Of a stretch of DNA of 64,000 nucleotides, positions 4,054-47,642 are shown one piece after another. Position numbers and translations under genes: made by a program. Positions within the stretch are counted from its first letter, which is position 1. Each line of letters starts with the position of its first letter. The stretch lies in the NCBI RefSeq assembly GCF_046105845.1, contig NZ_CP151004.1. One strand, written 5' to 3'. Under the pieces are notes generated by a model. That model was not told the DNA's origin, did no database searches, and was given only the letters and a program-made list of their open reading frames with translations. Source of the DNA: Escherichia coli (GTDB lineage: Bacteria > Pseudomonadota > Gammaproteobacteria > Enterobacterales > Enterobacteriaceae).

Positions 4054-4095
4054 AGTTTCCCCCGTTGTAAAGCGTGCGCCAGATAAGACACAACA

Positions 4096-13605: not shown

Positions 13606-13706
13606 TGCCGGATGCGGCATAAACGCCTTGCCAGGCCTACAAAACCCTCCAAATTCAATATATTGCAGGGACTTCGTAGGCCTGATCGGCATAGCGCATC
13701 AGGCAG
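13606..13706. repeat. REP/BIME-like palindromic units in msrA-ytfL intergenic region
   Basis: GCCGGATGCGGCATAAACGCCTTGCCAGGCCTAC… and TAGGCCTGATCGGCATAGCGCATCAGGC imperfect palindromes. Confidence 0.75.
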
Positions 13707-13881
13707 TTTTTCATTTATCAACAGTCTGAATTTTAACCCTCTGGCGGCTTTACAGTACCTTACGCTATACTAGCCACTGAAAATGCCGGTTCACTTTCTT
13801 CGAATCGGCTTTCAATGTGTATTTCACACAAATTAATCAACTTCCCCTTCCGAGGATCTGGCCTGAAAGGTCGGATAAGAT

Positions 13882-18325: not shown

Positions 18326-18514
18326 TTCTCCACCTCGTCTCTGTGAGCGGTGTTAACTTATTGTTTTACTTATACCCTATCGTTAATGAATGCGCCAACT
18401 GTGATAGTGTCATCATTTTCAAAGCGTAAAATTGTGGCATTCTTCACTGTTCTATAAGTAAGACGTTTATTCTCCCTTTTCTTTCGTATTCCCGATGATA
18501 AAAGGATGTCCCTG

Positions 18515-26144: not shown

Positions 26145-26361
26145 CGTATTTCCTTTCTTAGGGTATAAAGTAGCGGGCAGCATATCAGCCACACTTCTTT
26201 GGGTAAAACTTTGTCGCGGGAATGATGACAAATCCCGGGGAAAAAGAAACAATAGCAATATCCCGTATGAATATAATAAAGGCGGGTTTACCACGGACAT
26301 CATAGCGTTAGCTTATTCATAGGCTATGATTGAGGAACAAGACGCGGAGCAGGAGGAAACC

Positions 26362-27000
26362 ATGCCCGGGCGCTTTGAACTAAAACCAACCCTGGAGAAA
26401 GTCTGGCACGCGCCGGACAATTTTCTCTTCATGGACCCGCTGCCGCCGATGCATCGTCGGGGGATCATTATTGCCGCCATTGTATTGGTGGTCGGATTTC
26501 TGCTTCCATCTGATGATACGCCCAACGCGCCGGTGGTGACGCGTGAAGCGCAGTTAGATATTCAGTCGCAATCACAACCACCGACAGAAGAACAGCTGCG
26601 GGCGCAATTAGTCACGCCACAAAATGATCCTGATCAGGTGGCTCCGGTCGCTCCAGAACCAATACAGGAAGGCCAGCCAGAAGAGCAGCCGCACCCCCCC
26701 CAAACGCAACCATTCCAGCCAGATAGCGGAATTGATAATCAATGGCGCTCTTACCGTGTCGAACCCGGTAAAACGATGGCACAGCTGTTCCGCGACCACG
26801 GGCTGCCCGCTACCGATGTCTATGCAATGGCGCAGGTAGAAGGCGCGGGTAAGCCGCTGAGTAATTTGCAAAACGGGCAGATGGTGAAAATCCGCCAGAA
26901 CGCCAGCGGCGTGGTGACGGGCTTAACCATTGATACGGGGAATAATCAACAGGTCCTGTTTACCCGTCAGCCGGATGGCAGTTTTATTCGCGCGCGGTAG
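26362..27000 (+). CDS. ytfB: OapA/LysM-like cell-division-associated protein
   Basis: Start trimmed to [21 protein letters not shown]… (212 aa); single TM then periplasmic domain. Confidence 0.85.
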
Positions 27001-27134
27001 ATGAAGGGTCAACCAGAAGCCAGCTAAGGAGCGTCTCTTTGATGACCTTACGTCTGGCTTCCAGTGCCTGGGGTGAAACCATACTGATATGTTGACATCC
27101 TCCACGCCCTGAAGGACGTGGATCCCTGCTACGT

Positions 27135-28343
27135 TCAGGCTGTCGCCTGAATCATTTCGGTGGGTTCCTGCTTCAACGAGCGGCCTGACTGCACCATCTC
27201 TCCACAGGCAAGAACGGCGTGCCCCGCCGCTAAAATGTTACGAGCGCCGTTTACATCGGCGTTCGCTGTATATCCACATGCCTGGCATCTGAATTGACTT
27301 TGTGACAGGCGATTTTCTTTCGCTGTATGACCACAGCACGCGCAACGCTGGCTTGTGTACGCTGGCGGAACAGCAAGCACCTGACCGCCACGCCAGAGCT
27401 GCTTGTACTCAAGCTGGCGGCGCATTTCATACCAGCCCTGATCCTGTATCGAACGGTTTAAACCTGATTTTGCCCGGACATTGCGCCCCGGCTGGCTGAC
27501 CGTACCCGCTGCTGACTTTGACATGTTGCTGACCTTCAAATCCTCAATGACTATCATTGCGTGGTTTTTGCTGACGGTCGTTGTGACTTTGTGAAGGTAG
27601 TCCCTGCGGATATTTGCGATACAGGAATGCAGTCGCTGTATTTTGCGTTTCTGCTTCTGCCAGTTGTTGCTGAATTTGACCTTGCGGCTTAACTGTCGCT
27701 GAAGTCTCGCCAGCGTCTTCTGGTTTTTCTGAAAACTGTTTACAGGCCCAAAGACTGTGCCATCTGACAGCGTGGCGAGTTTAGCCACGCCAGCATCCAG
27801 CCCGACCATTGATGCTGAAGGGTGAACCGGAGTTGATACTTCATTTTCAGTCTGAATACTGATGTACCACTTACCGCAGGACTGGCTGACAGTGACATTT
27901 TTCACAACACCCGTGACCTGACGGCTATTCCGGTAGCGCATACAGCCAAGTTTCGGCAGAAAAATACGGCTGTTTTCCTGATCGAGCTTAACGCCCTGCG
28001 GGTAGCGGAATGCATCATTCTGTCCCCGCTTTTTGAATCGGGGAAAAGCAGCCCGCTTCTGGAAGAAGTTTTTGTAAGCCCGCTCAAGGTCTTTCAGTGA
28101 CTGTTGCAATGGCTGTGACGGGGCATCTTTAAGCCATTGCGTTTCAGTGGCATTTTTCCACTCAACCAGCCAGGAAGCCATTTTCCCGTAAGGGATGTAT
28201 TTATTACCGGCCTCATGATTCTCATTCTGAAGCGCCAGAGCACGATTGAAAACGAAACGACATGCGCCTGCGAAGCGCCTCATTTCACACTCCTGTTGAC
28301 CACCTGGTCTTAACTGGAATTTAAATGCCTGTAATCGTTTCAC
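27135..28343 (-). CDS. tnpB: TnpB (OrfB_IS605) RuvC-like RNA-guided endonuclease
   Basis: 402-aa ORF with RuvC-I (GLDAGV), RuvC-II (IVIEDL), zinc finger (CACCGH…CQACG) and RuvC-III ([10 protein letters not shown]) motifs. Confidence 0.9.
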
Positions 28344-28350
28344 AGGTCAA

Positions 28351-28782
28351 ATGATACTTTGGTCTATGAAAAAAGAAACCGATATCCGGCGTGGAAAGCA
28401 TTGTGTTTTCCTGATGCATGTTCACCTGGTCTTTGTCACCAAATACCGACGCCAGATTTTTGACCATGACGCGAAAGAAAAACTACGCACTTACTTTTCA
28501 AAGGTATGTGCTGATTTTGAAGCTGAACTGGTTGAAATGGATGGCGAACCAGATCACGTCCATTTGTTAATTAACTATCCTCCCAAACTGGCGATATCCA
28601 GTCTGGTAAACAGCCTCAAAGGCGTATCGAGTAGGTGACTGCGACGAGATCGACCAGATATTGCAGTCAGGTATTACTACAAAGGCGTTTTGTGGAGTCC
28701 TGGCTATTTTGCCAGTAGCTGCGGAGGTGCGCCAATATCCGCCATCCGTCAATACATTGAACAACAGCAAACACCTGGTTAG
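28351..28782 (+). pseudogene. tnpA: IS200-like Y1 HUH transposase TnpA interrupted by in-frame TGA
   Basis: HUH motif (PDHVHLLINYPPK) before a TGA at 28636..28638; the same frame continues (LRRDRPDIAVRYYYKGVLWSPGYFASSCGGAPISAIRQYIEQQQTPG) to TAG at 28780..28782. Confidence 0.75.
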
Positions 28783-28797
28783 GTGGAAAACCGCGCC

Positions 28798-29055
28798 TTA
28801 TATCCCCGCCCTGAAGGACGGGGTTTTACGGCGCACTGGATAAACCAGGCCAAGCGTATGCTGGTTGATCAAATAATATCCCCCAAGCGCAGCAATATTA
28901 ATATTCACCTGCAATGGGTCGCTATCTGCCTTAAAAATATTGTGTTTCTTCCCTTCATCCAATAATTCCATTAAATGCAAGTGCGCATGATTAATTTCTA
29001 AGAGACGCTGTGATTTTGCATAATGCACACCTTTACTTTGGTTTTCACTATGCAC
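28798..29055 (-). pseudogene. ytfA: ytfA-like remnant ORF; 3' end reads into the IS left-end hairpin
   Basis: 85-aa GTG-start ORF; last 7-8 codons (…TPSFRAGI) are encoded by the IS terminal hairpin; upstream in-frame TAA near 29182. Confidence 0.4.
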
Positions 29056-29405
29056 AATTTTTAAAAACCTGGGATTAGCAATATAATAACCCCAGGTAAA
29101 ATCGATGATTTTTTCAATGGATTTTTGTGGCTGGTTAACCTGCTGATTAACGAACGCACCGATACCGACAGCGTAGAATAATTACATACCGCACAACAAG
29201 AATGTATGGTGTAAGGCGTTGTCAGTCATCTCCCTCCCTGGATGCATCGTTATATCCGTGATGAGCGATTTTTGATATTAATATCTTTCACCATCCGCTA
29301 TCTTCACTACTTCAGAAAACAAACTTATTTTTATTAATATCGATTATTTATTCTGTGCACATTCAGCTGCGATATTTATAAAAAAATTAAACAGGCAAAA
29401 ATACA

Positions 29406-30200
29406 ATGACATTACCAACCACTATTTATTCATTTCCTGCATATTCACCCCGTTTTTCGTCCACCGACAAACCAGTAAAATTAAAATTTCATCAATACGC
29501 ACGCGCTACATTACTTTCAAATCGTGGAAGAGATCATAATTGCGATGGCAGACATACTGTTGAGATCCACAAACTAGATCTCTCAGACTGGCAAGCATTC
29601 AATAAGTTAGCGACGAGGTGTAATGCTTACGATGGAATAACAATGAATGGTGATAATTCTTTTGGATGGAACCATGAAGCTACATTAGATAATATTCACG
29701 CCCAGAAATACAATAAAGCTTACGCGGGTGCGAGGTTAACCGCAGAACTGAAATATTTATTGCAAGATGTCGAATCCTTCGAACCCAACAGTAAATACAC
29801 AATACACGAGGTTGTTTTGGGACCTGGTTATACTACTCCAGACTATACCGGCCAATCGATAGGATACGTTGTAACCCTTCCTGCCCAAATGCCTAATTGC
29901 TGGTCATCTGAACTACCAACAATCGATCTTTATATCGACCAACTTCGCACTGTTACAGGCGTTTCTAATTCCCTCGGATTCATCATTGCTGCATTGCTAA
30001 ACGCGTATTCTGATTTACCCCATGATTTGAAAATTGGTCTGCATTCCTTATCAAGTTCAGCAGCAATCTACTCGGGTTTGGGTTTCGAGCGAGTGCCGCA
30101 GGAGCGAGACATCAGTTGCGCTCGTATGTATCTAACGCCAGCAAACCATCCTGACTTATGGACACAAGAGAATGGTGAATGGATCTACTTGCGAAACTAA
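29406..30200 (+). CDS. yjfZ: uncharacterised protein YjfZ
   Basis: 264-aa ORF in AT-rich DNA; no recognisable domain. Confidence 0.75.
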   Translation: MTLPTTIYSFPAYSPRFSSTDKPVKLKFHQYARATLLSNRGRDHNCDGRHTVEIHKLDLSDWQAFNKLATRCNAYDGITMNGDNSFGWNHEATLDNIHAQKYNKAYAGARLTAELKYLLQDVESFEPNSKYTIHEVVLGPGYTTPDYTGQSIGYVVTLPAQMPNCWSSELPTIDLYIDQLRTVTGVSNSLGFIIAALLNAYSDLPHDLKIGLHSLSSSAAIYSGLGFERVPQERDISCARMYLTPANHPDLWTQENGEWIYLRN

Positions 30201-30222
30201 TACCTGACGAAAAATAGAAAGC

Positions 30223-30250
30223 AAAACGCCGACCACTGGTCGGCGTTTTT
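30223..30250. terminator. bidirectional rho-independent terminator between yjfZ and rplI
   Basis: AAAACGCCGACCactGGTCGGCGTTTTT: 10-bp GC-rich stem flanked by A-run and T-run. Confidence 0.85.
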
Positions 30251-30270
30251 ACGTCTCGTTGAATAACGAA

Positions 30271-30732
<462 letters not shown>

Positions 30733-30761
30733 TCAAAGTCGTATTAATGGACCGTGACCGA

Positions 30762-31308
<547 letters not shown>

Positions 31309-31314
31309 CAGAAA

Positions 31315-31728
<414 letters not shown>

Positions 31729-32036
31729 TTATTCAGCCTCCTGTCTGGGTCAGCCGAATCCCGGGGAGGCAAGGAACGTGTTAAAGGTCGGCTGAAAAAT
31801 GACGCGTTATAGTACTGACATACCCCGCTAAACTCAAGGCCAGCCGACAAATAAATCTCATCTTTCACCAAATCGTACTAACACGCTGATTTGAAGTTCA
31901 TCACACTTCATCATGGTGTTTTTTTGAACAACTGCATCAGAAATGGTCACCATCAACTTCTTTATCATTGATTAAAATTAAATCAGAAGATCATCACAGA
32001 GGAGAGCACACAAAGTCAGCCGTCGAGGAGGTATCT

Positions 32037-32312
32037 ATGTTCAGTCGTGTTTTAGCCCTTCTGGCTGTGCTTTTGCTAAGTGCAAATACATGGGCAGCCA
32101 TTGAAATTAATAACCACCAGGCCAGAAATATGGACGATGTGCAAAGCTTAGGCGTGATTTATATCAACCATAACTTCGCCACTGAAAGTGAAGCACGTCA
32201 GGCATTAAATGAAGAGACAGATGCGCAGGGCGCAACGTACTACCACGTGATTCTAATGCGGGAACCGGGGAGTAACGGCAATATGCACGCCAGCGCGGAT
32301 ATTTATCGCTAG
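32037..32312 (+). CDS. yjfY: DUF1471 (YdgH/BhsA/McbA-like) periplasmic protein
   Basis: Start trimmed to MFSRVLALLAVLLLSANTWA… (91 aa). Confidence 0.82.
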   Translation: MFSRVLALLAVLLLSANTWAAIEINNHQARNMDDVQSLGVIYINHNFATESEARQALNEETDAQGATYYHVILMREPGSNGNMHASADIYR

Positions 32313-32352
32313 CACCAGGTATAACCAACGAAACATTGCCATAGTTTGCTTT

Positions 32353-32377
32353 GCCCCCTTCGCAGGGGGCTTTTTTT
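32353..32377 (+). terminator. rho-independent terminator downstream of yjfY
   Basis: GCCCCCTtcgcAGGGGGC followed by TTTTTTT. Confidence 0.85.
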
Positions 32378-32440
32378 GAAAAACGGCTGCGGAATTAGAC
32401 CAGTTATCTCCCGAAGAAGGAAATTTCCGCAGCGCGTGTT

Positions 32441-33127
32441 TTACTTCTGCCCGTAATAAGCGTTAGGACCGTGCTTACGCATGAAGTGTTTATTCATGAG
32501 GTAGCTGTCGATATGATTCAGTTGTGGGTTAATGCCGCGGGCAATCCACGCCATTTTCGCCACTTCTTCCATCACTACCGCGTTATGCACCGCATCGTGG
32601 GCATCTTTCCCCCAGGCGAACGGCCCGTGCTGGTACACCACAATCCCCGGTGTATGCAGAGGCTCGGCGTTGCCCAGCGTTTCGATAATCACTTTGCCGG
32701 TGTTCAGTTCGTACTCGCCCTGCACCTCTTCTTCGCTTAATCCGCGCGTGCACGGGATGTCGCCAAAGAAGTAATCGGCGTGCGTAGTGCCTAACGCCGG
32801 GATCGCCAGCCCCGCTTGCGCCCATGCGGTAGCATGAGTTGAGTGGGTATGGACAATACCACCAAGCGACGGATAACGACGGTAGAGTTCGAGATGCGTG
32901 GCGGTGTCGGAAGACGGGCGATATTCCCCTTCCACCACCTTGCCGCTCATATCGACCACTACCATATCGTCTGCTTTCATGGTTTCGTAGGCGACACCGC
33001 TGGGCTTGATCACCACCAGCCTGCGTTCGCGGTCAATGGCACTGACGTTGCCCCAGGTAAAGGTCACCAGCCCGTAGCGCGGCAGATCCATGTTGGCTTC
33101 AAACACCTGCTGTTTTAGCTTTTGCAT
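32441..33127 (-). CDS. ulaF: L-ribulose-5-phosphate 4-epimerase
   Basis: 228-aa class II aldolase-fold ORF; last gene of ula operon. Confidence 0.92.
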
Positions 33128-33981
33128 TATGCCGCCTCCACCATGCCTGCTTTAGCCATACGCGCTTTCACCCAATCACGCGCTTTCGCCACTTCTGCCG
33201 CCGGGTCTTCCGCCGTTTCGCTCCACATCTCAATCAGGTACGGCCCGCAATAGCCACTCTGTTTGAGCGTTTCGAAGCAACGTTCGAAATCCACTACGCC
33301 TTCGCCAAATGGCACATTTTTGAAGACGCCTGGTTTGGTGTCTTTCACATGTACCGCGACGATATGCCCGATTCCGGCCTGCAACTCCATCTGCACATCG
33401 TTGTCCCACGCCGACAGGTTGCCGATATCCGGGTAGAGCTGGAACCACGGGTTGTTGAGATAGTGCGCGTAGCCCAGCGCCTTGCTGATGGAGTTCATCA
33501 ATGGGTAATCCATGATCTCCATCGCCAGCGTCACCTGCGCGCGGCTTGCCATCTCAACGCTCTCTTTCAGGCCGTCACGGAAACGACGACGCGTTTCGTT
33601 ATTGGCTTCCTGATAATAAACGTCATAGCCCGCCAGCTGGATCACACGGATACCGACATCCTGGGCGAACTGGATAGCTTTGCGCATAATCTCCAGCCCC
33701 TGCGCCCGCACCGCGTCATCTTCGCTACCCAGCGGGAAACGACGATGAGCAGAAAGGCACATAGACGGTACACGCACGCCGGTTTCAACAATCGCATTCA
33801 CCAGCGCCAGACGCTGCTCGCGGCTCCAGTCGAGGCGCGACAGGCGATCGTCCGTTTCATCTACCGACATCTCGACAAAATCGAAGCCTAACGTTTTTGC
33901 AAGTTGCAGCCGTTCCAGCCAGCACTCCCCGGCGGGGAGCGCTTTTTCATAGATGCCAAGCGGGATTTGTTTGGACAACAT
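33127..33981 (-). CDS. ulaE: L-ribulose/xylulose-5-phosphate 3-epimerase
   Basis: 284-aa TIM-barrel ORF; stop overlaps ulaF start. Confidence 0.92.
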
Positions 33982-33990
33982 ATCCGCTCC

Positions 33991-34641
33991 TTAGCCCCAC
34001 AGTTCGGCGATGGAACGTTTGAACTGACGCGCGGCTTCAACCGGAGAAGCGGCATCACGGATGCTGCGACCAGCGATAAACACGTGAATCGGAATGCCTT
34101 TGAACAGCGGCAGATCTTCCAGCGCCAGGCCACCGGTGACGGTCACTTTGAAGCCCATATCGGAAAGACGTTTGATCGCGGTAATGTCCGCTTCGCCCCA
34201 CGCCACGCCTGCGGCCTGTGCGTCACGGCTGCGGTGATAAACCACCTGCTGAATGCCTGCATCGCGCCACTGTTGCGCCTGTTCCCAGGTCCAGTAACCG
34301 GTCAGTTCGATCTGCACGTCGCCGTTAAACTCTTTTGCCACGTCCAGCGCACCTTTGGCGGTGTTGATATCCGCACAGCAAATCACGGTCACCCAGTCAG
34401 CGTTGGCTTCAAAGCACATACGAGAAAGGATTTTGCCCGCATCGGCAATTTTGGCGTCTGCCAGTACGATTTTGTGCGGGTAAAGCGCTTTCAGATCGCG
34501 AACCGCACGCACGCCTTCGCCCACGCACAGAATGGTGCCCACTTCGATAATGTCGACTTCTTCGGCAATCAGGCGAGTGGTTTCGTAGGCGCTATCCATA
34601 GTCTGGTTGTCCAGCGCGACTTGCAACATCGGTAATGACAT
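33991..34641 (-). CDS. ulaD: 3-keto-L-gulonate-6-phosphate decarboxylase
   Basis: Start trimmed to [36 protein letters not shown]… (216 aa). Confidence 0.92.
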
Positions 34642-34654
34642 TTTCAATTCCTTC

Positions 34655-35119
34655 TTAAGCTGCCGCGTTGGTGCGGTCAATGAGATCCAGTACTTCCTGC
34701 TCGGTACGGCAGGCGCGTAAACGGTCGAAATTCTCTTCATCTTCAAACAGGTTAACGATCTGCATGATGCCCACTTCCTGATGAGTGTTGGCATCGACCG
34801 CCGCCATGGTGATGAGGATATCCACCGGATCGTTATCTTCGTGGTTGAACTCCAGCGGCTTTTTCAGCGTCACTAGCGCAAAACCGGTTTTCTTAACGCC
34901 CTCTTCCGGGCGACCGTGCGGCATTGCCAGGCCTGGTGCGAGCACAAAGTACGGACCGTGCTGTTCAACCGCATCCAGAATCGCCTGGTAGTAACGCGGC
35001 TCGACAACATCCGCCGCCACCAGCAGGTCAACGCCGATTTTTACTGCGTCCTGCCATGTCTCAGCTTCAGCCTGCAGGCGGATGGATTTATTCTCCGCCA
35101 GCGAATCACGTAATTTCAT
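34655..35119 (-). CDS. ulaC: ascorbate PTS enzyme IIA
   Basis: 154-aa ORF ([29 protein letters not shown]…). Confidence 0.92.
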
Positions 35120-35128
35120 GGCGCGTCC

Positions 35129-35434
35129 TTACTTCACATCCTGCGGGAAATGCTCTTTGATCACTTCCAGCAGTTTCGGGCCAAAGTCGGCAGGAGAGAG
35201 CATGTTGCGCACACCAACCACGTATTTGTTGCCGGTCACGGTGATTTCGCCCGCAATGTGCGTAGAAGCGATGATGATATCCGCGCCGCTCAACTCGCTT
35301 TTGTATTCGCCAACCGCGCAGCTGTTTACCGTGTGGTCAATGTTTGATTGGGTTAAAAACTGGTCCACTTTCATCTTCATGATCATGGAACTGCCTTGTC
35401 CGTTGCCACACACAGCCAGAATACGTACGGTCAT
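35129..35434 (-). CDS. ulaB: ascorbate PTS enzyme IIB
   Basis: Start trimmed to [25 protein letters not shown]… (101 aa). Confidence 0.9.
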
Positions 35435-35449
35435 AATCAAAACTCCTTA

Positions 35450-36904
<1,455 letters not shown>

Positions 36905-37024
36905 TCACTCTAATTTTCAAAAGTAATCACAACAAGATTATTTATGATTAAATGTGACGCGACCCGCAAATAATTCCACATGGATAGAGTGGGATTCACA
37001 CAACGAAATAATTATTCATTTAAA

Positions 37025-37042
37025 TTCATTTAGTTAAATGAA
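37025..37042. promoter_or_regulatory. inverted repeat TTCATTTAgtTAAATGAA in ulaA-ulaG divergent control region; candidate UlaR (DeoR-type) operator
   Basis: Perfect 8-2-8 palindrome in the AT-rich intergenic region between the divergent ula transcription units. Confidence 0.5.
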
Positions 37043-37201
37043 TTACACATTCCATTAAATCTTTCCACACTCAAAATCAACAACAACTTCCCTGGCAAAA
37101 AGTCAAAAAATGGTCATTGCCTTCCTGAAAAAATAGTGTCAGGATTAATCAAAACCAATCACATGTTGATTCGAATTGAACTATCATGAAGGTAAATGGC
37201 G

Positions 37202-38266
37202 ATGAGTAAAGTGAAAAGTATCACCCGAGAATCCTGGATCCTGAGCACTTTCCCGGAGTGGGGTAGCTGGCTGAATGAAGAAATTGAACAAGAGCAGGTC
37301 GCCCCTGGCACATTTGCGATGTGGTGGCTAGGCTGCACCGGGATCTGGCTGAAATCAGAAGGTGGCACCAACGTTTGCGTTGATTTCTGGTGCGGCACTG
37401 GCAAACAAAGTCACGGTAACCCGTTAATGAAACAGGGTCACCAGATGCAGCGCATGGCTGGCGTGAAAAAACTGCAGCCAAACCTGCGCACCACCCCGTT
37501 TGTTCTTGATCCGTTTGCGATTCGCCAGATCGACGCGGTACTGGCGACTCACGATCACAACGATCATATCGACGTTAACGTCGCTGCTGCCGTGATGCAG
37601 AACTGTGCTGATGACGTACCGTTCATTGGACCGAAAACCTGCGTTGATTTGTGGATTGGCTGGGGCGTACCGAAAGAGCGTTGCATCGTGGTCAAACCGG
37701 GCGATGTTGTAAAAGTGAAAGACATTGAAATTCATGCGCTTGACGCTTTCGACCGTACTGCACTGATCACCCTACCTGCCGATCAAAAAGCGGCTGGCGT
37801 ACTGCCAGATGGCATGGACGATCGCGCAGTAAACTACCTGTTCAAAACCCCTGGCGGTTCCCTGTATCACAGTGGCGATTCCCACTACTCTAACTATTAT
37901 GCGAAGCACGGTAACGAACATCAGATCGACGTGGCTTTAGGTTCATACGGCGAAAACCCGCGCGGTATTACCGACAAAATGACCAGCGCCGATATGCTGC
38001 GTATGGGTGAAGCCCTGAATGCGAAAGTGGTTATCCCGTTCCACCACGACATCTGGTCAAACTTCCAGGCCGATCCGCAAGAAATCCGCGTGCTGTGGGA
38101 GATGAAAAAAGATCGTCTGAAGTATGGCTTCAAGCCGTTTATCTGGCAGGTGGGCGGCAAATTTACCTGGCCGTTGGATAAAGACAACTTCGAATACCAC
38201 TATCCGCGTGGTTTCGATGATTGCTTCACTATTGAACCGGATCTGCCGTTCAAGTCATTCCTGTAA
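37202..38266 (+). CDS. ulaG: L-ascorbate-6-phosphate lactonase (metallo-beta-lactamase fold)
   Basis: Start trimmed to [24 protein letters not shown]… (354 aa); HDHNDH metal-binding motif. Confidence 0.92.
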
Positions 38267-38278
38267 TCTGTCGTTTAT

Positions 38279-38312
38279 ACCGGATAGCGTGGAGTAGTTC
38301 GCGCTATCCGGC
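38279..38312 (+). terminator. stem-loop downstream of ulaG (putative terminator or REP-like hairpin)
   Basis: CCGGATAGCG…CGCTATCCGG 10-bp inverted repeat; no clear T-run. Confidence 0.4.
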
Positions 38313-38373
38313 GTAGTATTTCCTGGCTATTTCAAATATCATCTAAAAAAATCAAATTTTATCGGAATAGCTC

Positions 38374-39129
38374 ATGACTGAAGCACAAAGACATCAAATC
38401 CTCCTGGAAATGCTCGCACAATTGGGCTTTGTGACCGTTGAGAAAGTCGTTGAGCGTCTGGGAATTTCGCCTGCCACTGCGCGACGCGATATCAATAAAC
38501 TTGACGAAAGCGGCAAACTGAAAAAAGTGCGCAATGGCGCAGAAGCTATTACCCAGCAGCGCCCACGCTGGACGCCGATGAATCTGCATCAGGCGCAGAA
38601 TCACGATGAAAAAGTACGTATTGCTAAAGCGGCCTCGCAGCTGGTTAATCCGGGCGAAAGCGTAGTCATCAACTGCGGCTCCACCGCGTTTCTGCTTGGG
38701 CGGGAAATGTGTGGCAAGCCAGTGCAAATCATCACTAATTATCTACCGCTGGCAAATTACCTGATCGATCAGGAGCATGACAGCGTGATCATTATGGGCG
38801 GACAGTACAACAAAAGTCAGTCCATCACTTTAAGCCCGCAAGGCAGCGAAAACAGTCTCTATGCCGGGCACTGGATGTTTACCAGCGGCAAAGGGCTGAC
38901 AGCAGAAGGGTTGTATAAAACCGATATGCTGACGGCAATGGCAGAGCAGAAGATGCTAAGCGTGGTAGGGAAACTGGTGGTACTGGTTGATAGCAGTAAG
39001 ATCGGCGAACGCGCGGGAATGCTTTTTAGCCGTGCCGATCAAATCGATATGCTGATCACCGGCAAAAATGCTAACCCGGAAATCCTGCAACAACTGGAAG
39101 CGCAAGGGGTCAGCATTCTGCGTGTTTAA
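38374..39129 (+). CDS. ulaR: DeoR-family transcriptional repressor of the ula regulon
   Basis: 251-aa ORF with N-terminal HTH (…[27 protein letters not shown]…). Confidence 0.92.
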
Positions 39130-39875
39130 AGATGCTGGCGGAAAAATGTCACGGCAGCATCTAACGCCTCAGGCGTAATGCGGTGACGCACGCCTGGCTG
39201 CCATGAACAGGTTAGCAGTTTATCCCGTCCCGTCTCGCTTAAGGCCTGCTGCAAACGTAGTGATTCGTCGGCAGGCACGACGTCATCGTCAAGGCCATGC
39301 CACAGCAGTAGAGGTCTGTCACCAAGTTGTTCCAGGTGGTTTGTCGCTTCCCACTCTGCCAGCGGCGCGACAATGTTATTGAATTCATTCTGCTGTGCTG
39401 CCGTTTCAGGTATCAGCGGTGGAAACAGTGAACGGGCGAGCGATGTAAAATAGCCCGATCCCATCATGCTGGCGGTACATTTCACCGTGGGGTGGCGAGC
39501 GGTAATTCCCAGTGCCGTCATCGCGCCCATCGACGCGCCACCGACTGCCAGACGGTCAGCAAGCAGCCAGTTTTCTTCGGCTATTGCCGCACGTAACGTA
39601 GTGAATTCCTGCATACTTTGTAGCAAAATTTGCCAAAATTGATTTAACCGCCGCGCTGCGTCGCCCCTAAAACGGCTACCGTGATCGGGCGCATCCGGCA
39701 TGATCACTCGCAAACCAGCCTGCGCCAGCGCAACGGCAAAATAGCTATACACCAGACTGGACGAAGTAAAGCCGTGATAAAAAATCACGCACGGTAATGG
39801 GGTATCTTTTTGCCCGACAGGATAAGCATGAAGAACGGGAATATCTGCCAGCTCGCGTGATTCTATTTCAATCAT
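39126..39875 (-). CDS. yjfP: alpha/beta-hydrolase esterase
   Basis: 249-aa ORF with GASMG nucleophile-elbow motif; 4-bp overlap with ulaR stop (convergent). Confidence 0.88.
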
Positions 39876-40056
39876 CTGTCTCTCCTTTTTGTCTGGTATG
39901 ACATGAAGAAATCCTTAGCACAAGTTTCTGCTGGCGGTATTAGTTCATAATGTTGAGATGTGGGTTACGCTTTCATCACGTTTTCATTCGAAAATCGCGT
40001 ACCAGGTAACAATTCGGGAACATTCCCCCAAAGTTAAATTAATAAGGCACTACACT

Positions 40057-40386
40057 ATGGTTAGCAGGAAACGTAATAGCGTTATTTACCGGTTTGCCAG
40101 TTTATTATTGGTGTTGATGTTAAGTGCCTGTAGCGCACTGCAAGGTACGCCACAGCCAGCACCGCCAGTAACCGACCATCCGCAAGAGATTCGCCGCGAC
40201 CAGACGCAAGGGTTACAGCGAATAGGTAGCGTAAGCACGATGGTTCGGGGTTCTCCGGATGACGCATTAGCAGAAATCAGAGCGAAAGCTGTCGCTGCAA
40301 AAGCTGATTATTACGTTGTCGTCATGGTGGACGAAACCATCGTCACAGGACAGTGGTATTCACAAGCCATTTTGTACCGTAAATAA
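40057..40386 (+). CDS. bsmA: biofilm stress and motility lipoprotein BsmA
   Basis: Start trimmed to MVSRKRNSVIYRFASLLLVLMLSACSALQG… (109 aa); lipobox LSAC. Confidence 0.85.
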   Translation: MVSRKRNSVIYRFASLLLVLMLSACSALQGTPQPAPPVTDHPQEIRRDQTQGLQRIGSVSTMVRGSPDDALAEIRAKAVAAKADYYVVVMVDETIVTGQWYSQAILYRK

Positions 40387-40534
40387 ATCAGACAACTTAC
40401 ATAGTCAGCTTTACATTGCTTTGCGTCCCTATGCGTTTACCTGTGCACAATAAATTACCGGCTGGAAGCTCGGGCGTTTATTACCGCGATGGAATGCCCT
40501 GCAACATGTGGGGAAACGAAAAATGGAGCTGACG

Positions 40535-40810
40535 ATGAAACAATTACTTGCCTCACCCTCGCTGCAATTAGTGACTTATCCTGCGAGCGCCACGGCACAG
40601 TCTGCAGAATTCGCCAGTGCTGACTGCGTGACGGGCCTGAATGAAATAGGTCAGATCTCAGTTAGCAATATTTCAGGGGATCCGCAGGACGTGGAACGTA
40701 TCGTGGCGTTAAAGGCCGATGAACAAGGTGCGTCATGGTACCGCATTATTACCATGTACGAAGACCAGCAGCCTGATAACTGGCGCGTACAGGCGATACT
40801 GTATGCATGA
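40535..40810 (+). CDS. yjfN: DUF1471 periplasmic protein
   Basis: Start trimmed to MKQLLASPSLQLVTYPASATAQSAEFA… (91 aa). Confidence 0.8.
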   Translation: MKQLLASPSLQLVTYPASATAQSAEFASADCVTGLNEIGQISVSNISGDPQDVERIVALKADEQGASWYRIITMYEDQQPDNWRVQAILYA

Positions 40811-40835
40811 GTGTCATCTACAGCAAATGAACAAT

Positions 40836-40868
40836 GCCGGATGCGGCGCGAGCGCCTTGTCCGGCCTA
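40836..40868. repeat. REP element between yjfN and aidB
   Basis: GCCGGATGCGGCGCGAGCGCCTTGTCCGGCCTA palindromic unit. Confidence 0.75.
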
Positions 40869-40926
40869 TAATTTTCACATATTTCATTGAGTTAATTGAA
40901 ACCAGCGTTGCATCAGTCGTATACGC

Positions 40927-42552
40927 TTACACACACACTCCCCCCGTCGCCCGCAGCAATAAATCATTCTGGATCTGCTCTGACAACCGTACGCCGCCGC
41001 GCGTATCTAACATCACCTGACACCACGCCTGCGCCATTGGCGGAGAGGCATATTTCAACATTTGCGCACCGCAGCCCAGCAGGAATAGCTTATGAGTAAT
41101 CTCTCGCCCCAGTTCTTCAGCTGGCTTACGCAGCTGCTGCTGTAAACGACGAACCGCGCGATCAAAATAGCGATCCTGCCCTTTCACTTCCACAAATGCT
41201 TCCGACAATAAGTCGTATACACCCGCTTGCTTATTGAGAACACGCAGTACATCCAGGCACATAATATTACCGGAACCTTCCCAAATACTGTTTACCGGCA
41301 TCTCCCGGTAAAGCCGCGGCAGCTCGCTCTCCTCGCAATAACCAATGCCGCCCAGCACCTCCATCGCTTCGGCCACAAACGGCATACCTCGTTTGCAGAT
41401 CACAAATTTCACCGCAGGCGTAAATAAACGCGCCCACAGGGCTTCTTTAGCATCGGCACGCCGGTCCCACGCTCGCGCAAGACGAAACAGCAACGCCGTT
41501 TGCCCTTCAAGCTGAAGTGCCATGCGACTTAAGACATGACGCATAAGGGGCTGTTGGATCAATGGATTACCAAAAACATGGCGTTGATGGGCATGATAAA
41601 TCGCCAGCGAAAATGCACGGCGCATCATGGCATGGCTACCCAGGGCGCAATCAAAACGCGTCATCCCTCCCATTTTCAGGATCAGACGAGTTCCTTCCCC
41701 TTCCTGCCCTAACAACCAGCCAATGGCATCCTGAAACTCCACTTCGCAGCTGGCGTTAGAGCGATTACCCAGCTTATCTTTCAGCCGCTCGAGGCGAATC
41801 GCGTTGCGTTGCCCGTCAGGCAAAAAGCGCGGCACAAAAAAGCAGGACAAACCGCCCGTAGTCTGCGCCAGCACCAGATGCGCATCGCTTTGCGGCACCG
41901 AGAAAAACCATTTATGCCCCACCAGCCGATAAGAGCCATCTTCCAGGCGCTCTGCGCGGGTGGTGTTGCTCATGACATCGGAACCGCCCTGCTTTTCCGT
42001 CATTCCCATGCCAATCAACAAACCGCGTTTTTGCCCACCTGGCAATAAGTGAGAATCGTAGCGATCGCTCAACAGCGGCGTGGTCCAGTCCTGAAACGGC
42101 GTGGGTAACATCTGTAACAACAATGGCGTGGCGGCAAAGGTCATCGTTATCGGACATAACGACCCTGCCTCAACCTGTGCGTGCAACATAAAACGCGCCG
42201 CGCGCGCCACAAATGCGCCGGAGCGAGCGTCTTCTTCCCAGGCAAGATTGTGCACCCGATTGGTACATAGCGCCTGCATCAGCAAGTGCCAGGCGGGGTG
42301 AAAACGCACATCGTCCAGATGGCGTCCTTGCGCATCGTAGCGCAATAATTCAGGCGGATTCACATTCGCCAGCCGCCCCAGTTCAAGAGATTCAGCCGTT
42401 CCTAACTGCTGACCAATACTGGCTAGAAAATCGCTATCCCAGCCAGCACCTTCACGCGTTACCGCTTCACAGAGCGCGCCATCAGACAGGTATAAGTTAC
42501 TGTTATTTAATGGTATAGGTTGATTAAAAACGGTGTGAGTTTGCCAGTGCAC
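40927..42552 (-). CDS. aidB: acyl-CoA dehydrogenase-family adaptive-response protein AidB
   Basis: 541 aa from GTG start (VHWQTHTVFNQPIPLNNSNLY…); acyl-CoA dehydrogenase fold. Confidence 0.9.
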   Translation of the reverse strand: MHWQTHTVFNQPIPLNNSNLYLSDGALCEAVTREGAGWDSDFLASIGQQLGTAESLELGRLANVNPPELLRYDAQGRHLDDVRFHPAWHLLMQALCTNRVHNLAWEEDARSGAFVARAARFMLHAQVEAGSLCPITMTFAATPLLLQMLPTPFQDWTTPLLSDRYDSHLLPGGQKRGLLIGMGMTEKQGGSDVMSNTTRAERLEDGSYRLVGHKWFFSVPQSDAHLVLAQTTGGLSCFFVPRFLPDGQRNAIRLERLKDKLGNRSNASCEVEFQDAIGWLLGQEGEGTRLILKMGGMTRFDCALGSHAMMRRAFSLAIYHAHQRHVFGNPLIQQPLMRHVLSRMALQLEGQTALLFRLARAWDRRADAKEALWARLFTPAVKFVICKRGMPFVAEAMEVLGGIGYCEESELPRLYREMPVNSIWEGSGNIMCLDVLRVLNKQAGVYDLLSEAFVEVKGQDRYFDRAVRRLQQQLRKPAEELGREITHKLFLLGCGAQMLKYASPPMAQAWCQVMLDTRGGVRLSEQIQNDLLLRATGGVCV

Positions 42553-42571
42553 TGTGTCTCCCTCCATCAAT

Positions 42572-42599
42572 GGCAGTCACCATTAGTATGGTCACTGCC
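42572..42599. promoter_or_regulatory. inverted repeat GGCAGTCACCAT-tagt-ATGGTCACTGCC just upstream of aidB start
   Basis: 12-bp near-perfect palindrome (1 mismatch) about 20 bp upstream of aidB; could equally be the yjfC terminator. Confidence 0.4.
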
Positions 42600-42635
42600 A
42601 TGGATTCATGACAGAAAGAGATTGCTAAAACATTC

Positions 42636-43799
42636 TTATCCAGCAATGTAATGCGGAACGAAACGTGAGGTGTCTTTGGTGATCAGCGTGTTATCTTCAC
42701 GGATCCCCATTCCGCACGCTTCATCATCGACAATCCAGCTACCGATGAGTGTGTAGCTATCGCCAAATCGCGGCAGAGGTTGAAACGCCTGGTAGATCAT
42801 CGGTTCATCGGCGTAATCACCATCAGCGTGGTCAACGACGTTATTCTGACCGTCGAAAATGGTGACATTGCCGCCTTCGCGCGAGTAGATCGGTTTACGC
42901 ACATAGCTTTCGCCAGCGGCAATCTGCGGTTTTTCGCCCTCAAACCAGGATGCAAGAAGGTTAGGATGACCAGGGAAGAAGCGCCAAAGCAGTGGCATTA
43001 GCCCTTTATTACTCAAGATACTTTTCCATAACGGCTCCACCCATTGCTCGCGACGCTTGCGCAGCAGCGGACCGTTATCGTCACGCATCATCCACTCTAG
43101 CGGATACAGCTTAAATGCACGCTGGATGACATTATCATCAAGATCGGTCAGTACACCGCCGACGCCCAAACCGAGATCTTCAATGTAGATAAACCGCGAC
43201 TCCTGCCCTGCCTGCTGGGCGCAGTCCTGCAAATACAGCACGGTAGTCCTGTCTTCATCGGTGTCCTGACAGCAGCAAAAATAAAACGGTTCCCGACTGT
43301 AAAGCTCGCTAAAGCGTGAAATCAGGCGTTCCTGAATAGCATTGTACTGATCGGCATCACGCGGAATAATGCCGCTGCGCCGGGCATCCTCCAGCCACAG
43401 CCACTGGAAATAAGCCGACTCGTACAATGAAGTTGGCGTATCGGCGTTGTACTCCAGTAGCTTCACCGGCGCATTGCCACACCAGGCAAAATCCATCCGG
43501 CCATACAGCGAAGGATCTCGTGCGCGCCAGCTTTCGGCGATCACATCCCAGTACAATGGCGGGATCGCCAGTTGCGTCAGGATCTCTTCGTCTTTAACCG
43601 CGCGATCCACCACCTCAAGGCACATCTGATGCAGTTCCGCAGTCGGTTTTTCGATCTGCTCTTCAATCTGACGCAGGGTAAAGCGGTAAGCCCGACTCTC
43701 ATCCCAATAGATTTCATTGTCGATGATATGAAAGTCGAAACCGTTGTCAGCGGCGATCTGGTCCAGATCCCACCGTACAGGAACGTTGTGTCTCAGCAT
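42636..43799 (-). CDS. yjfC: glutathionylspermidine-synthase-like ATP-grasp protein
   Basis: Start trimmed to MLRHNVPVRWDLDQIAADNGFDF… (387 aa); overlaps yjfM stop. Confidence 0.85.
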   Translation of the reverse strand: MLRHNVPVRWDLDQIAADNGFDFHIIDNEIYWDESRAYRFTLRQIEEQIEKPTAELHQMCLEVVDRAVKDEEILTQLAIPPLYWDVIAESWRARDPSLYGRMDFAWCGNAPVKLLEYNADTPTSLYESAYFQWLWLEDARRSGIIPRDADQYNAIQERLISRFSELYSREPFYFCCCQDTDEDRTTVLYLQDCAQQAGQESRFIYIEDLGLGVGGVLTDLDDNVIQRAFKLYPLEWMMRDDNGPLLRKRREQWVEPLWKSILSNKGLMPLLWRFFPGHPNLLASWFEGEKPQIAAGESYVRKPIYSREGGNVTIFDGQNNVVDHADGDYADEPMIYQAFQPLPRFGDSYTLIGSWIVDDEACGMGIREDNTLITKDTSRFVPHYIAG

Positions 43800-43801
43800 G
43801 A

Positions 43802-44440
43802 TTAGCCTCCCCAATGCCCACGGGCGCTGGAAGAACGACCATAGCCGCCGCGAGAAACGGTTGACGCTTTTTTGGTGGTAAAGCCGCCCGAAGAGTAAGA
43901 CTCTTTTTTGCCAGAACCGGAGCGCCAGGAGTAATCACCAGAAGTGTTGCGCCAGACAGGGCGCGAAGCAAAAGAGGAACCGCCGCTGTTATAAACAAAC
44001 TGCTCATCACGATCTTTACGTATAACCCGGCTTAACAAAAATCCAGAAACGACCGGGATCCAACTCTGTTCAACGTTGTCGTAGTAACAATTTTCATACT
44101 TAGACTGACAATTCTGCTGAGTCATATTCTTCGGAACATCGGCATAAAACGCCGCTTTGGCGTTGTTCCAGCCATGAGCACAGATATCTGAATTATTTCC
44201 GTCATCAATACAATCCTGCACAGTCGAGTAAAACGTTCCGTCGCCGTCGTTATCGACATCGCCACTATCGCCACAACCTTTCAATACGAAAAAAGCGGCA
44301 CCGCCCATTAGCGCCAACGTTAAGTATTTTTGTGCGTAACGATTGCGACGCGGTTCAAAAGGATTATTCGGTCTACCAATGCGACTGATCGCTCCGTGAC
44401 CAATTTTACTGTTATTTCTTGATTTGCGTTTTCTGGCCAT
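43802..44440 (-). CDS. yjfM: DUF1190-type protein with basic N-terminus, Cys-rich middle and Gly/Ser/Arg/Tyr-rich C-terminal tail
   Basis: 212-aa ORF; possible lipobox (FVLKGC); low-complexity C-terminus. Confidence 0.8.
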   Translation of the reverse strand: MARKRKSRNNSKIGHGAISRIGRPNNPFEPRRNRYAQKYLTLALMGGAAFFVLKGCGDSGDVDNDGDGTFYSTVQDCIDDGNNSDICAHGWNNAKAAFYADVPKNMTQQNCQSKYENCYYDNVEQSWIPVVSGFLLSRVIRKDRDEQFVYNSGGSSFASRPVWRNTSGDYSWRSGSGKKESYSSGGFTTKKASTVSRGGYGRSSSARGHWGG

Positions 44441-44449
44441 GATCGTCCA

Positions 44450-44848
44450 TTACCATGTCATACAAGCTGCGTTAAAAATACCGCCAGCCAGTGCGGCGGT
44501 TCCCATAAACATTCCTGCTGCGGTATTGTGATTAATAATTTTTTCGCTTAATGCGGGCATATAAAGTCTGACGCCAGCAAAAACGAGTAACTGAATCACC
44601 AGTGCGATCCCGCCCCAGGCGAAATAGTCTGGAATACTCACCGCATTGATTGCCGCACTGGATAACGGGATCACGTAACCCAACAATGTACCGCTGAACG
44701 CCAGTGACGCCGCGGTATTATTGTTTTTGATTAACTGCCATTCGTTGTGCGGTGTAATTTTAGAATAGATAAACAGAAAAATAATCACCATAGCCACGCC
44801 AATAAAAAAATAGGCACTAAAGGCAAGAAGAGAATCCAGTATATGCAT
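44450..44848 (-). CDS. yjfL: DUF350-type inner membrane protein
   Basis: Start trimmed to MHILDSLLAFSAYFFIGVAMVIIFLF… (132 aa); 4 predicted TM segments. Confidence 0.8.
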   Translation of the reverse strand: MHILDSLLAFSAYFFIGVAMVIIFLFIYSKITPHNEWQLIKNNNTAASLAFSGTLLGYVIPLSSAAINAVSIPDYFAWGGIALVIQLLVFAGVRLYMPALSEKIINHNTAAGMFMGTAALAGGIFNAACMTW

Positions 44849-44865
44849 TGTAAACGTCCTTGTAA

Positions 44866-45525
44866 TTAACCAATAATATGAAGTGATGTCAGCGGGATAT
44901 CGACACCCAACGCGCGCGAAAATAACCACTCTGGCTCGCCGAGATCGTTAAAAGATTCCTCACCATTTAGCAGCAAATATTCGTAAGTATCTTCGGTTAC
45001 TTGCCGTTGGTAGCCCATGGTAAAATTATGGACCTCCCATTTGGCATGGTTTTGATTTTCTACTTTTTCCAGCATGTAGACGGGTTCGATATTTCCCGGT
45101 TCTTCGCTGTTAAAAAATCGCTGCCAGCGTTTTTCCTGCCAGTTTAAGGTCATTGCCCCCATCGCTTTGGCATTGATCGTCTCGCGCCAGTGACTCTCTT
45201 TACTGATACCGTAGCTCTCTTCATAGACAAAGAGCTTGATATCATCAATGTCATCAATATTTTCGCCGCCGGTGGTATTGATTTGCAGAAATTCATCGCC
45301 CGAAGTGTAGTAGCGGAAAATCTGGCTACCGCCGCCCAGATCGATGCGGCTGACGGCGGCTACCGTAAATTCCTCACCCGGCAGCGCAATCAGCAATTCA
45401 TCTTCCAGCAAACGAAACGCTAACGTGTCGAGCGTAAAACCACTATTGAGATGCAGACCCAGCGGACCGCGAGCGATAGCAGGCTTATTATCCTTGCCAA
45501 ACAGACGCTGGAAAAAACCAGACAT
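44866..45525 (-). CDS. yjfK: DUF2491-type protein
   Basis: 219-aa soluble ORF in conserved yjfI-yjfC cluster. Confidence 0.8.
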   Translation of the reverse strand: MSGFFQRLFGKDNKPAIARGPLGLHLNSGFTLDTLAFRLLEDELLIALPGEEFTVAAVSRIDLGGGSQIFRYYTSGDEFLQINTTGGENIDDIDDIKLFVYEESYGISKESHWRETINAKAMGAMTLNWQEKRWQRFFNSEEPGNIEPVYMLEKVENQNHAKWEVHNFTMGYQRQVTEDTYEYLLLNGEESFNDLGEPEWLFSRALGVDIPLTSLHIIG

Positions 45526-45575
45526 ATTTTATCCTTAAAATAGTTGCCAGCCTTGCAGTGAGGCTGGCAAAAAAA

Positions 45576-46274
45576 TTACTCGCCCTGTTGGCGTTGCAGT
45601 CTTGCTAATACATCCTGGGCGCTACTTTTATTGCTACCGCCTATTCCGGCTTCCGCCAGCTTTTCATCAAGATCGCGACCGTCTGCGACTTTTTCCAACT
45701 GTGCAGCAGCATCCAGACGAGCCTGACGTTCGGCCTGACGCGTTTGCAGGCGTTTTAAGGATTCTGCCGCTGTCGAAACGCTGGAAGATGCGCCAACGGT
45801 AGAGGTCGTTACAGCCTGTTGTGCACGCTGCATGGCTTCAGTGGCTTTAACGACTTCCATTTGCTGCTCAAACTGAGCGATACGCTGCGCTGTCGCTGTA
45901 ACTGCTTTTTCCACGCCATCACGGGAGACTTCCAGATTCGACAACACTTGCTCTTCAGCGGTAATGAGATTCTCAAGGCGCGCGATTTCTTCAGCAACTT
46001 CGTTAATCAACGACGGATTAACGTTCTTGCTTAACGCTTCCAGCGCACGAGCTTCCAGACTGGCTTTGCGCTCACGTAAATCTTTCAGCTTATCGTGACT
46101 TAATTTCACCCGCGCCAGCAGATCAACGCGAGATTTTCCGGCTTTATCGAGTTCAGCTTTAGCGTCACGAATATGCTGTTCCAGCATGCGCACGCCCTGG
46201 GTTTCTTCAATGGATTCTTCCGCTTGGGAGATAAACGATTTCCCCAGCGTAAATAAACTTTTTAAAATTCCCAT
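45576..46274 (-). CDS. yjfJ: PspA/IM30-family coiled-coil protein
   Basis: 232-aa ORF with extended heptad-repeat coiled coil typical of PspA/Vipp1. Confidence 0.85.
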   Translation of the reverse strand: MGILKSLFTLGKSFISQAEESIEETQGVRMLEQHIRDAKAELDKAGKSRVDLLARVKLSHDKLKDLRERKASLEARALEALSKNVNPSLINEVAEEIARLENLITAEEQVLSNLEVSRDGVEKAVTATAQRIAQFEQQMEVVKATEAMQRAQQAVTTSTVGASSSVSTAAESLKRLQTRQAERQARLDAAAQLEKVADGRDLDEKLAEAGIGGSNKSSAQDVLARLQRQQGE

Positions 46275-46292
46275 AAATACCCGTCCTTGTAA

Positions 46293-46694: not shown

Positions 46695-46773
46695 ATATTA
46701 TTCCATATAGATTTAGTTTAAATATTAACAAAATGAATATTTGCAGTACGTAATTATCTTACCAGCTAAACAC

Positions 46774-46806
46774 AAAAAAAAACCATCCAAATCTGGATGG
46801 CTTTTC
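46774..46806 (-). terminator. rho-independent terminator downstream of rlmB
   Basis: On minus strand CCATCCAgattTGGATGG followed by TTTTTTTTT. Confidence 0.85.
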
Positions 46807-46820
46807 ATAATTCAGAGGAA

Positions 46821-47552: not shown

Positions 47553-47565
47553 TAATGTACTCGTT

Positions 47566-47636: not shown

Positions 47637-47642
47637 TTGTGA

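Follow-up and report, generated by a model that had tools for sequence, protein, structure and literature searches.

A resident IS609 copy in Escherichia coli ytfA with a TnpB-family gene, a predicted omega-RNA scaffold and a putative flank-derived guide

A 64,000-nucleotide stretch of Escherichia coli DNA (contig NZ_CP151004.1; "the window" below) contains an open tnpB gene next to an interrupted tnpA gene, close to ytfB. This locus raises the question of whether the two genes belong to a complete mobile element and, if so, which RNA and which DNA target the nuclease would use. A first-pass annotation had proposed a probably active TnpB, guided by RNA that reads out of the element into its flank. 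We find that the window carries a complete resident copy of IS609, a member of the IS200/IS605 family, 1748 bp in length, on the minus strand at 27092..28839 inside ytfA. By homology, its tnpB encodes a TnpB-family RNA-guided nuclease with a full RuvC triad and zinc finger, and the last ~149 nucleotides (nt) of the element correspond, by their conserved predicted fold, to an omega-RNA scaffold. We consider it very likely that the account as a whole holds, namely a resident IS609 in ytfA, TnpB with its omega-RNA scaffold, and a flank-derived guide directed against the uninterrupted site.

Element identity and ends

The element was identified by Megablast comparison with 5,426 complete E. coli genomes, the set used for all genome counts below. 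Matching insertions carry the RefSeq labels "IS200/IS605-like element IS609 family transposase" and "RNA-guided endonuclease InsQ/TnpB family protein", and E. coli IS609 copies share 97-99% identity with the window element over 1748 bp, which is near-identity to IS609. The K-12 copy, located between ydcO and ydcL, has ~97.6% nucleotide identity. Its tnpB, beside an IS200/IS605 tnpA, is annotated insQ (InsQ/TnpB family) and encodes a protein 96.5% identical to that of the window. It is likewise 1748 bp long with divergent genes, preceded by TTAT and ending in TCAA. The features that define the window copy are as follows.

27092..28839, minus strand: IS609 element; the transposon "top" strand is the window minus strand, with the left end at 28839 and the right end at 27092 (empty site, eight copies, RefSeq)
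28840..28843, minus strand: TTAT (ATAA on the plus strand), the target tetranucleotide and transposon-associated motif (TAM), abutting the left end (invariant in eight of eight copies)
28804..28823, minus strand: left-end subterminal hairpin CCCCG-TCCTTCAGGG-CGGGG; the AAAA before it is a candidate DNA guide for TTAT (sequence; weak covariance-model match, 12.3 bits)
27101..27122, minus strand: right-end subterminal hairpin TCCACGT-CCTTCAGG-GCGTGGA, also the last stem of the predicted omega-RNA scaffold (helix 9: seven pairs, four compensatory)
27092..27095, minus strand: right-end cleavage tetranucleotide TCAA, the final four bases of the element (eight copies; two positions differ from TTAT)

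The empty site in E. coli Nissle places the insertion at 27091/27092 and 28839/28840, with no target duplication. Taken alone, the empty site leaves a boundary ambiguity of 1 nt (a G at 27091 or at 28839), which is removed because copies at other loci fix both ends. This end comparison covered eight copies at seven loci: ytfA, ydcO/ydcL (K-12), ygjK, yedK, yeaQ/yeaR, hslO/yhgE and a plasmid. In all eight, TTAT is followed by the left end CC(A/G)GTGCG... and the right end reads ...GGAGGATGTCAA; full-length copies measure 1748 bp. Read along the tnpB-sense strand, every copy has TTAT, then CC(A/G)GTGCGCCGTAAAA and a hairpin, and at the other end a hairpin, AGGATGTCAA and the flank, with flanks that are unrelated to each other. 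TTAT at the left end and TCAA at the right end are both invariant (8/8 copies, seven loci). The right-end TCAA extends across 24 aligned sequences, 22 of them from ~17 other taxa, with TTAA in one sequence, and ~20 of 47 related loci from other species lose nucleotide homology with the window exactly at 27092.

The left and right subterminal hairpins share the same loop and lie on one strand. The end geometry predicted from the sequence has 16 nt between the left-end cleavage site and the left hairpin 3' of it, and TCAA at most 10 nt 3' of the right hairpin. The copy thus has the properties of the IS200/IS605 family: a Y1 HUH TnpA (with codon 96 read as Leu), neither terminal inverted repeats nor a target duplication, subterminal hairpins and a fixed target motif. 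Helicobacter pylori IS608 (PMC3201880) shares the single-strand "peel and paste" architecture, the subterminal hairpins and the lack of inverted repeats and target duplication, and in both elements the right end terminates in TCAA at most 10 nt from the hairpin foot, a likeness of sequence features and not of TnpA chemistry. The four nucleotides 5' of the left hairpin are AAAA in the window, for TTAT, and AAAG in IS608, for TTAC, in the same register of complementarity. IS608 differs in its target (TTAC versus TTAT), in its co-directional genes, which are divergent here, and in a left-end cleavage site 19 rather than 16 nt from the hairpin.

The hslO/yhgE copy (1500 bp) and the copy on plasmid NZ_OZ409599.1 (1336 bp) have internal tnpA deletions. 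Both derivatives retain the two ends, tnpB and the omega region and are tnpB-only, non-autonomous forms.

The tnpB and tnpA genes

Both genes of the element could be assigned by profile and structure-database searches.

27135..28343, minus strand: tnpB (insQ), 402 amino acids, GTG start, open (open reading frame list, Pfam, NCBIfam, phmmer)
27795-27797, minus strand: RuvC D183 (GLDAGV, motif from residue 181; phmmer alignment)
27543-27545, minus strand: RuvC E267 (IVIEDL, motif from residue 264; phmmer alignment)
27255-27257, minus strand: RuvC D363 (motif from residue 361; phmmer alignment)
TnpB residues 334 and 353, minus strand: zinc-finger CxxC pairs CACC and CQAC (motif positions)
28351..28782, plus strand: tnpA (Y1 HUH) pseudogene, 143 codons, premature TGA at codon 96 (28636..28638; alignment with strain 1190 and K-12)

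TnpB matches the Pfam families HTH_OrfB_IS605 (4e-13), OrfB_IS605 (5.9e-34) and Cas12f1-like_TNB, the zinc ribbon (2.8e-24). It scores 385 bits against NCBIfam NF040570, "RNA-guided endonuclease TnpB family protein" (cut-off 100). A phmmer search of the PDB matched TnpB of ISDra2 from Deinococcus radiodurans (8exa/8bf8/8h1j) at E=3.4e-52. In this alignment D183, E267 and D363 fall on ISDra2 D191, E278 and D361, opposite GVDVG, TEHLK and RDENAALNI, and the two proteins agree in domain order, in the D/E/D triad and in the zinc-finger residues. The first-pass annotation had read the RuvC catalytic residues and the CxxC…CxxC finger as kept and tnpA as broken, and the alignments bear it out on each point. 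ISDra2 differs in its TAM (TTGAT versus TTAT) and in a scaffold unrelated at the nucleotide level, and the tnpA and tnpB genes of the window are divergent; any activity of the window protein would be by analogy with ISDra2. The start codons of tnpB (GTG at 28343, minus) and tnpA (ATG at 28351, plus) are separated by 7 nt, and each promoter must therefore sit within the other gene; on the minus strand, a consensus scan gave no sigma-70-like site.

The tnpA gene is interrupted by one nonsense codon and not by a frameshift. The codon is Leu (TTA) in the intact copy of strain 1190, and Leu occupies this position throughout in other species. With the stop read as Leu, TnpA scores 149.6 bits against NF033573 (cut-off 55) and contains the HVHLL motif. 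The TGA precedes the C-terminal ...WSPGYFASSCG... segment, so the truncated product lacks this segment, which we take to hold the catalytic Tyr (by IS608 Y127).

The same TTA to TGA change, in the context UGA-C, is present in IS609 copies at four loci: ytfA (window), ydcO (K-12), ygjK and yedK. Other IS609 copies keep TTA, including the ytfA copy in strain 1190. Counted by allele-specific 30-mers, TGA occurs in at least 3,369 places in 2,725 genomes and TTA in at least 6,301 places in 3,879 genomes. The shared TGA may reflect a trans-mobilised defective lineage, gene conversion or a leaky stop. A stronger form of the last idea, that the TGA at four or more loci is a leaky or programmed stop that keeps TnpA low without switching off TnpB or the omega RNA, seems to us quite improbable. 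If it were true, IS609 would be a low-activity, nuclease-guarded element, and the ytfA copy would be a standing drive against empty ytfA alleles entering by recombination.

Predicted omega-RNA scaffold, guide and target

The 3' part of tnpB and the right end contain the RNA features of the system, which overlap with the ytfA remnant and its neighbor ytfB.

27092..27240, minus strand: predicted omega-RNA (reRNA) scaffold, ~149 nt (consensus fold, covariance model, published scaffold)
27072..27091, minus strand: predicted guide CATATCAGTATGGTTTCACC, equal to coding sequence of the ytfA 3' remnant; 16-nt core at 27076..27091 (first bases after TCAA in all copies and species)
26984..27091, minus strand: ytfA (TetR/AcrR regulator) 3' remnant, 108 nt, overlapping the end of ytfB by 17 nt (RefSeq annotation of Nissle, empty, and strain 1190, occupied)
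26326..27000, plus strand: ytfB (RefSeq annotation mapped onto the window)

The scaffold overlaps the last ~35 tnpB codons, the stop codon (27135-27137) and the 43-nt right end. The alignment that we folded has 24 sequences, of which 21 are loci from other taxa and the rest are the window and two further E. coli copies. RNAalifold returned 40 pairs in nine helices, and 18 of the pairs have compensatory double changes. Across the alignment 95.6% of the scaffold cells are paired, compared with 89.3% in column shuffles, and none of 500 shuffles reaches the observed value on any measure; sliding the partners by 1-3 columns as a register-shift control lowers pairing to 38-50%. In the window copy, each of the 40 is a standard pair. 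We also built a covariance model from 18 relatives outside Escherichia only; it has one strong match in the 64-kb window, which runs end to end over 27240..27092 on the minus strand (165.9 bits, E=1.9e-45).

A published scaffold is available for comparison. Table S3 of PMC12781874 lists an "IS609 omega RNA scaffold" that has the same GGAGGAUGUCAA end as the window scaffold and aligns gap-free to window 27298..27092 with 82% identity. Table S2 of the same study gives TTAT as the TAM used for an IS609 TnpB that is 94% identical to that of the window, and that was purified and assayed.

The guide RNA of ISDra2 is made from the 3' end of tnpB together with the right end, its guide is taken from the flank, and the TAM is the target motif of the transposon (PMC8612924). 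Here the element ends ...GTCAA and the flank begins CATATCAG at 27091. The predicted guide, from 27091 down to 27072, would accordingly be read from the first non-homologous sequence past the right end, next to the conserved scaffold, where the first-pass annotation had placed it. The 27092/27091 boundary it had assumed holds because the guide is the first flank sequence beyond the right end, and that boundary is exact by the empty site, the eight copies and the loss of homology in other species. The window guide differs from that of K-12 IS609 because the insertion sites differ (ytfA versus ydcO/ydcL).

The first-pass annotation had placed the target at the ytfB-ytfA junction. Its proposal that the guide matches the uninterrupted insertion site stands, as natural empty alleles have this sequence; the location does not, since the site lies within the ytfA coding sequence. 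Strains with an empty site have a 648-nt minus-strand TetR/AcrR gene, ytfA, which shares its final 17 nt with the end of ytfB, stop included. The target falls within this gene, and so the insertion is not intergenic. The insertion point is 91 nt past the end of ytfB, with ~105 nt still to go to the ytfA stop, and the ytfA 5' remnant begins at 28840. The empty alleles of AF40, ST131 and SJ7 read GGTTTAT followed at the insertion point by CATATCAGTATGGTTTC...; AF40 matches the guide at 20/20 nt, and ST131 and SJ7 at the first 17 nt. The K-12 and Nissle allele has TTAT and CACATCAG..., with a mismatched C at guide position 3. Positions 3 and 18 of the guide are polymorphic among occupied alleles too, giving two variable sites in the 20-nt guide, and we regard these as ordinary polymorphisms for that reason. 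The position-3 polymorphism (27089) was considered as a separator of empty and occupied alleles and rejected, as both alleles occur in both classes. The ytfA site is occupied in ~1,699 genomes (~31%) and contiguous and empty in 3,283.

Both flanks of the empty AF40 site have the haplotype seen in occupied alleles (98.8% identity; window 26892..27091 and 28840..29039). This allele could be a pre-insertion haplotype or a product of precise excision. The occupied alleles of the window and strain 1190 are without 3 nt (AGG, plus strand) at ~28964/28965 in the ytfA 5' remnant, which all examined empty alleles have. Annotations give an intact 648-nt ytfA for Nissle, ST131 and SJ7 and a gene incomplete at its N terminus for K-12 and AF40.

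These features suggest the following mechanism. IS609, with its divergent tnpA and tnpB, would have inserted 3' of TTAT in ytfA. Transcription or processing of the tnpB message across the right end would append the flank from 27091 to ~27076/27072 as a 16-20-nt guide, by analogy with ISDra2 and Geobacillus. The TnpB ribonucleoprotein, on the same analogy, would cut DNA that contains TTAT followed by CATATCAGTATGGTTTC. Such a target would exist only in uninterrupted ytfA, either in an empty allele or at the donor joint, which excision by TnpA leaves without a scar. In the occupied locus, which has the only near-match to the guide in the window, the protospacer is preceded by TCAA and not by TTAT; the locus would be immune for this reason, which is the usual basis of self-immunity. 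Cutting of the vacated or empty site would be expected to favor retention of the element by recombination, giving TnpB a role in homing and retention, and excision from the window copy would need TnpA supplied by another copy. The closest model is ISGst TnpB of Geobacillus stearothermophilus, in which the guide likewise matches the scarless donor joint, the vacated site is cut and the element is retained by recombination. ISGst homing has been shown by experiment (bioRxiv 10.1101/2023.03.14.532601), whereas for IS609 the same logic is predicted by analogy, and the window copy has a broken cis tnpA.

State of the copy, alternative readings and significance

We compared the window copy with seven other ytfA-site copies to assess its state. 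Among these eight copies, the element in the window has three private substitutions.

27942..27944, minus strand: TnpB W134C, codon TGT (private among eight ytfA-site copies)
27444..27446, minus strand: TnpB L300Q, codon CAG (private among eight ytfA-site copies)

The third is K350Q, and all three are non-synonymous and absent from K-12 IS609. Trp is found at position 134 in 15/15 close relatives, in every relative with 50% identity or more and in ISDra2 (KLGW), and relatives with 30-35% identity have Leu. At position 300, every relative with 50% identity or more has Leu, and distant relatives have Ala, Ser or Arg. The available part of an ISDra2 mutational-scanning preprint makes no mention of a Trp equivalent to W134, and a literature search for "W141" likewise returned nothing. 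The ratio of non-synonymous to synonymous polymorphism (pN/pS) in tnpB is 0.17-0.38 among ytfA-site copies, indicating some constraint, and 0.95 between the window and its closest ytfA-site copy. Two of the eight copies have a dead tnpB, with a premature stop at amino acid 354 or a frameshift from an 11-nt deletion (strains 7_12_15B and Ec15103). In strain Yu5, tnpB has a harmless stop at codon 399, four codons early. The pseudogenised or shortened tnpB genes of some ytfA-site strains point to ongoing decay of a fixed copy. Variable-site density is flat at 4-6% over tnpA, tnpB, the scaffold and the flanks, and at 6.1% the omega scaffold does not fall below tnpA or the flanks.

The private changes, the conserved Trp that one of them replaces, the high pN/pS of the window copy, its dead sister copies and the unremarkable scaffold density all weigh against a functional system, and further points belong on the same side. 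The text of PMC12781874 states no activity for its IS609 TnpB ortholog. The TnpB of H. pylori IS608 was inactive in a comparable assay (bioRxiv 10.1101/2023.03.14.532601), and an intact set of motifs is therefore no guarantee of activity. A scan of the minus strand detected neither a sigma-70-like site ahead of the scaffold nor a terminator beyond the guide, which we count as uninformative and not as negative; missing signals of this kind are compatible with an omega RNA processed from tnpB mRNA. A literature search on IS609 or insQ with TnpB or small RNA (sRNA) found no study of an E. coli omega RNA. At the gathering threshold, no Rfam family matches the scaffold region. A permissive Rfam search of the minus strand at 27079..27262 gave HgcC (RF00062; 24.6, gathering 50), RAGATH-18 (RF03064; 29.5, gathering 44.9) and sot0042 (RF02656; 19, gathering 88), and as these scores are below gathering we assign no Rfam membership. 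Presumably all three are RNAs that overlap tnpB 3' ends. They resemble the window RNA in a ...UGAAGCAGGAA... core and a terminal hairpin and differ in that the window RNA, as the families are curated, is not a member.

The earlier view that the window TnpB is probably active is, from its sequence and that of its sister copies, unproven. An open but dead relic, in which IS609 and its RNA scaffold are intact and the TnpB allele is non-functional or unused, is a serious possibility, if short of a probable one, and it rivals the activity of the system only and not its identification. The truncated tnpA, the three private substitutions with W134C at a Trp conserved to ISDra2, the pN/pS of 0.95, the broken tnpB in two of the eight sampled ytfA-site genes and the lack of extra conservation in the omega region all fit such a relic. 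They have to be set against an intact catalytic triad, zinc finger and full set of 40 scaffold pairs, against the constraint on tnpB in E. coli, and against distant relatives that tolerate Leu at 134 and Ala, Ser or Arg at 300. A truncated tnpA precludes a donor joint in cis, and unless another copy supplies TnpA, the chromosome that carries the nuclease offers it no target. The TnpB/omega-RNA system in the window copy is probably idle.

Two other readings concern what the 3' region is for. The conserved structure might not be RNA at all and instead reflect only single-stranded DNA hairpin and guide sequences for TnpA at the right end together with tnpB coding constraint. Helix 9 (27101..27122) is indeed the right-end hairpin that TnpA would bind, a similar hairpin is found at the left end, and helices 2-5 overlap coding sequence. 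We nevertheless think this very unlikely, given that the covarying helices reach ~150 nt inward, compared with the ~45-56 nt of right end in IS608 TnpA complexes (PMC3201880), and that helices 2, 5, 7 and 8 contain compensatory changes. The region codes for a C-terminal tail that is dispensable in ISDra2 TnpB, according to the mutational-scanning preprint; the sub-threshold Rfam matches and the use of this stretch as the omega-RNA scaffold with a purified ortholog (PMC12781874) also speak for RNA. Alternatively, the insertion could have acquired a domesticated function, either as a TldR-like RNA-guided repressor or through a read-through RNA antisense to the ytfB 3' end. The fixation of the insertion in nearly a third of the genomes would suit this, as would a transcript leaving the right end, which would be antisense to at least the last 17 nt of ytfB. 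Such a role is hardly probable at all when the RuvC triad is intact, unlike in nuclease-dead TldR proteins, when the guide differs at every locus and tracks the transposon boundary, and when tnpB decays in some ytfA-site copies; the polymorphic guide positions 3 and 18 and the scan without terminator or promoter features point the same way.

Across the 20 kb at window 29000..49000, none of the complete E. coli genomes exceeds 98.8% identity. The window therefore belongs to a lineage not represented among them, a divergent E. coli or one resembling Shigella, and the reading of the element is unaffected. The window further contains ordinary enterobacterial RNA features that are unrelated to IS609, each at the Rfam gathering threshold.

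18392..18514, minus strand: ES239 sRNA
31708..31792, minus strand: RpsF leader
13763..13820, plus strand: STnc450
4077..4153, minus strand: naRNA4
13641..13683, plus strand: ES036

IS609, the InsQ/TnpB name, the TTAT TAM and the omega-RNA scaffold are already in RefSeq annotation or the literature, and nothing of substance is new. What we add is a base-exact map of one copy, with its ends, TAM, scaffold, guide and natural target alleles, and the correction of the target to the ytfA coding sequence. To this we add a caution: with W134C, L300Q, K350Q and a truncated tnpA, activity of the window allele is not to be assumed. E. coli offers a natural test bed in its ~1,700 occupied and ~3,300 empty ytfA sites, in which perfect guide matches can be set against position-3 mismatches. 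The biology that such a test bed would address is the known homing model, and the finding accordingly carries little weight beyond annotation.

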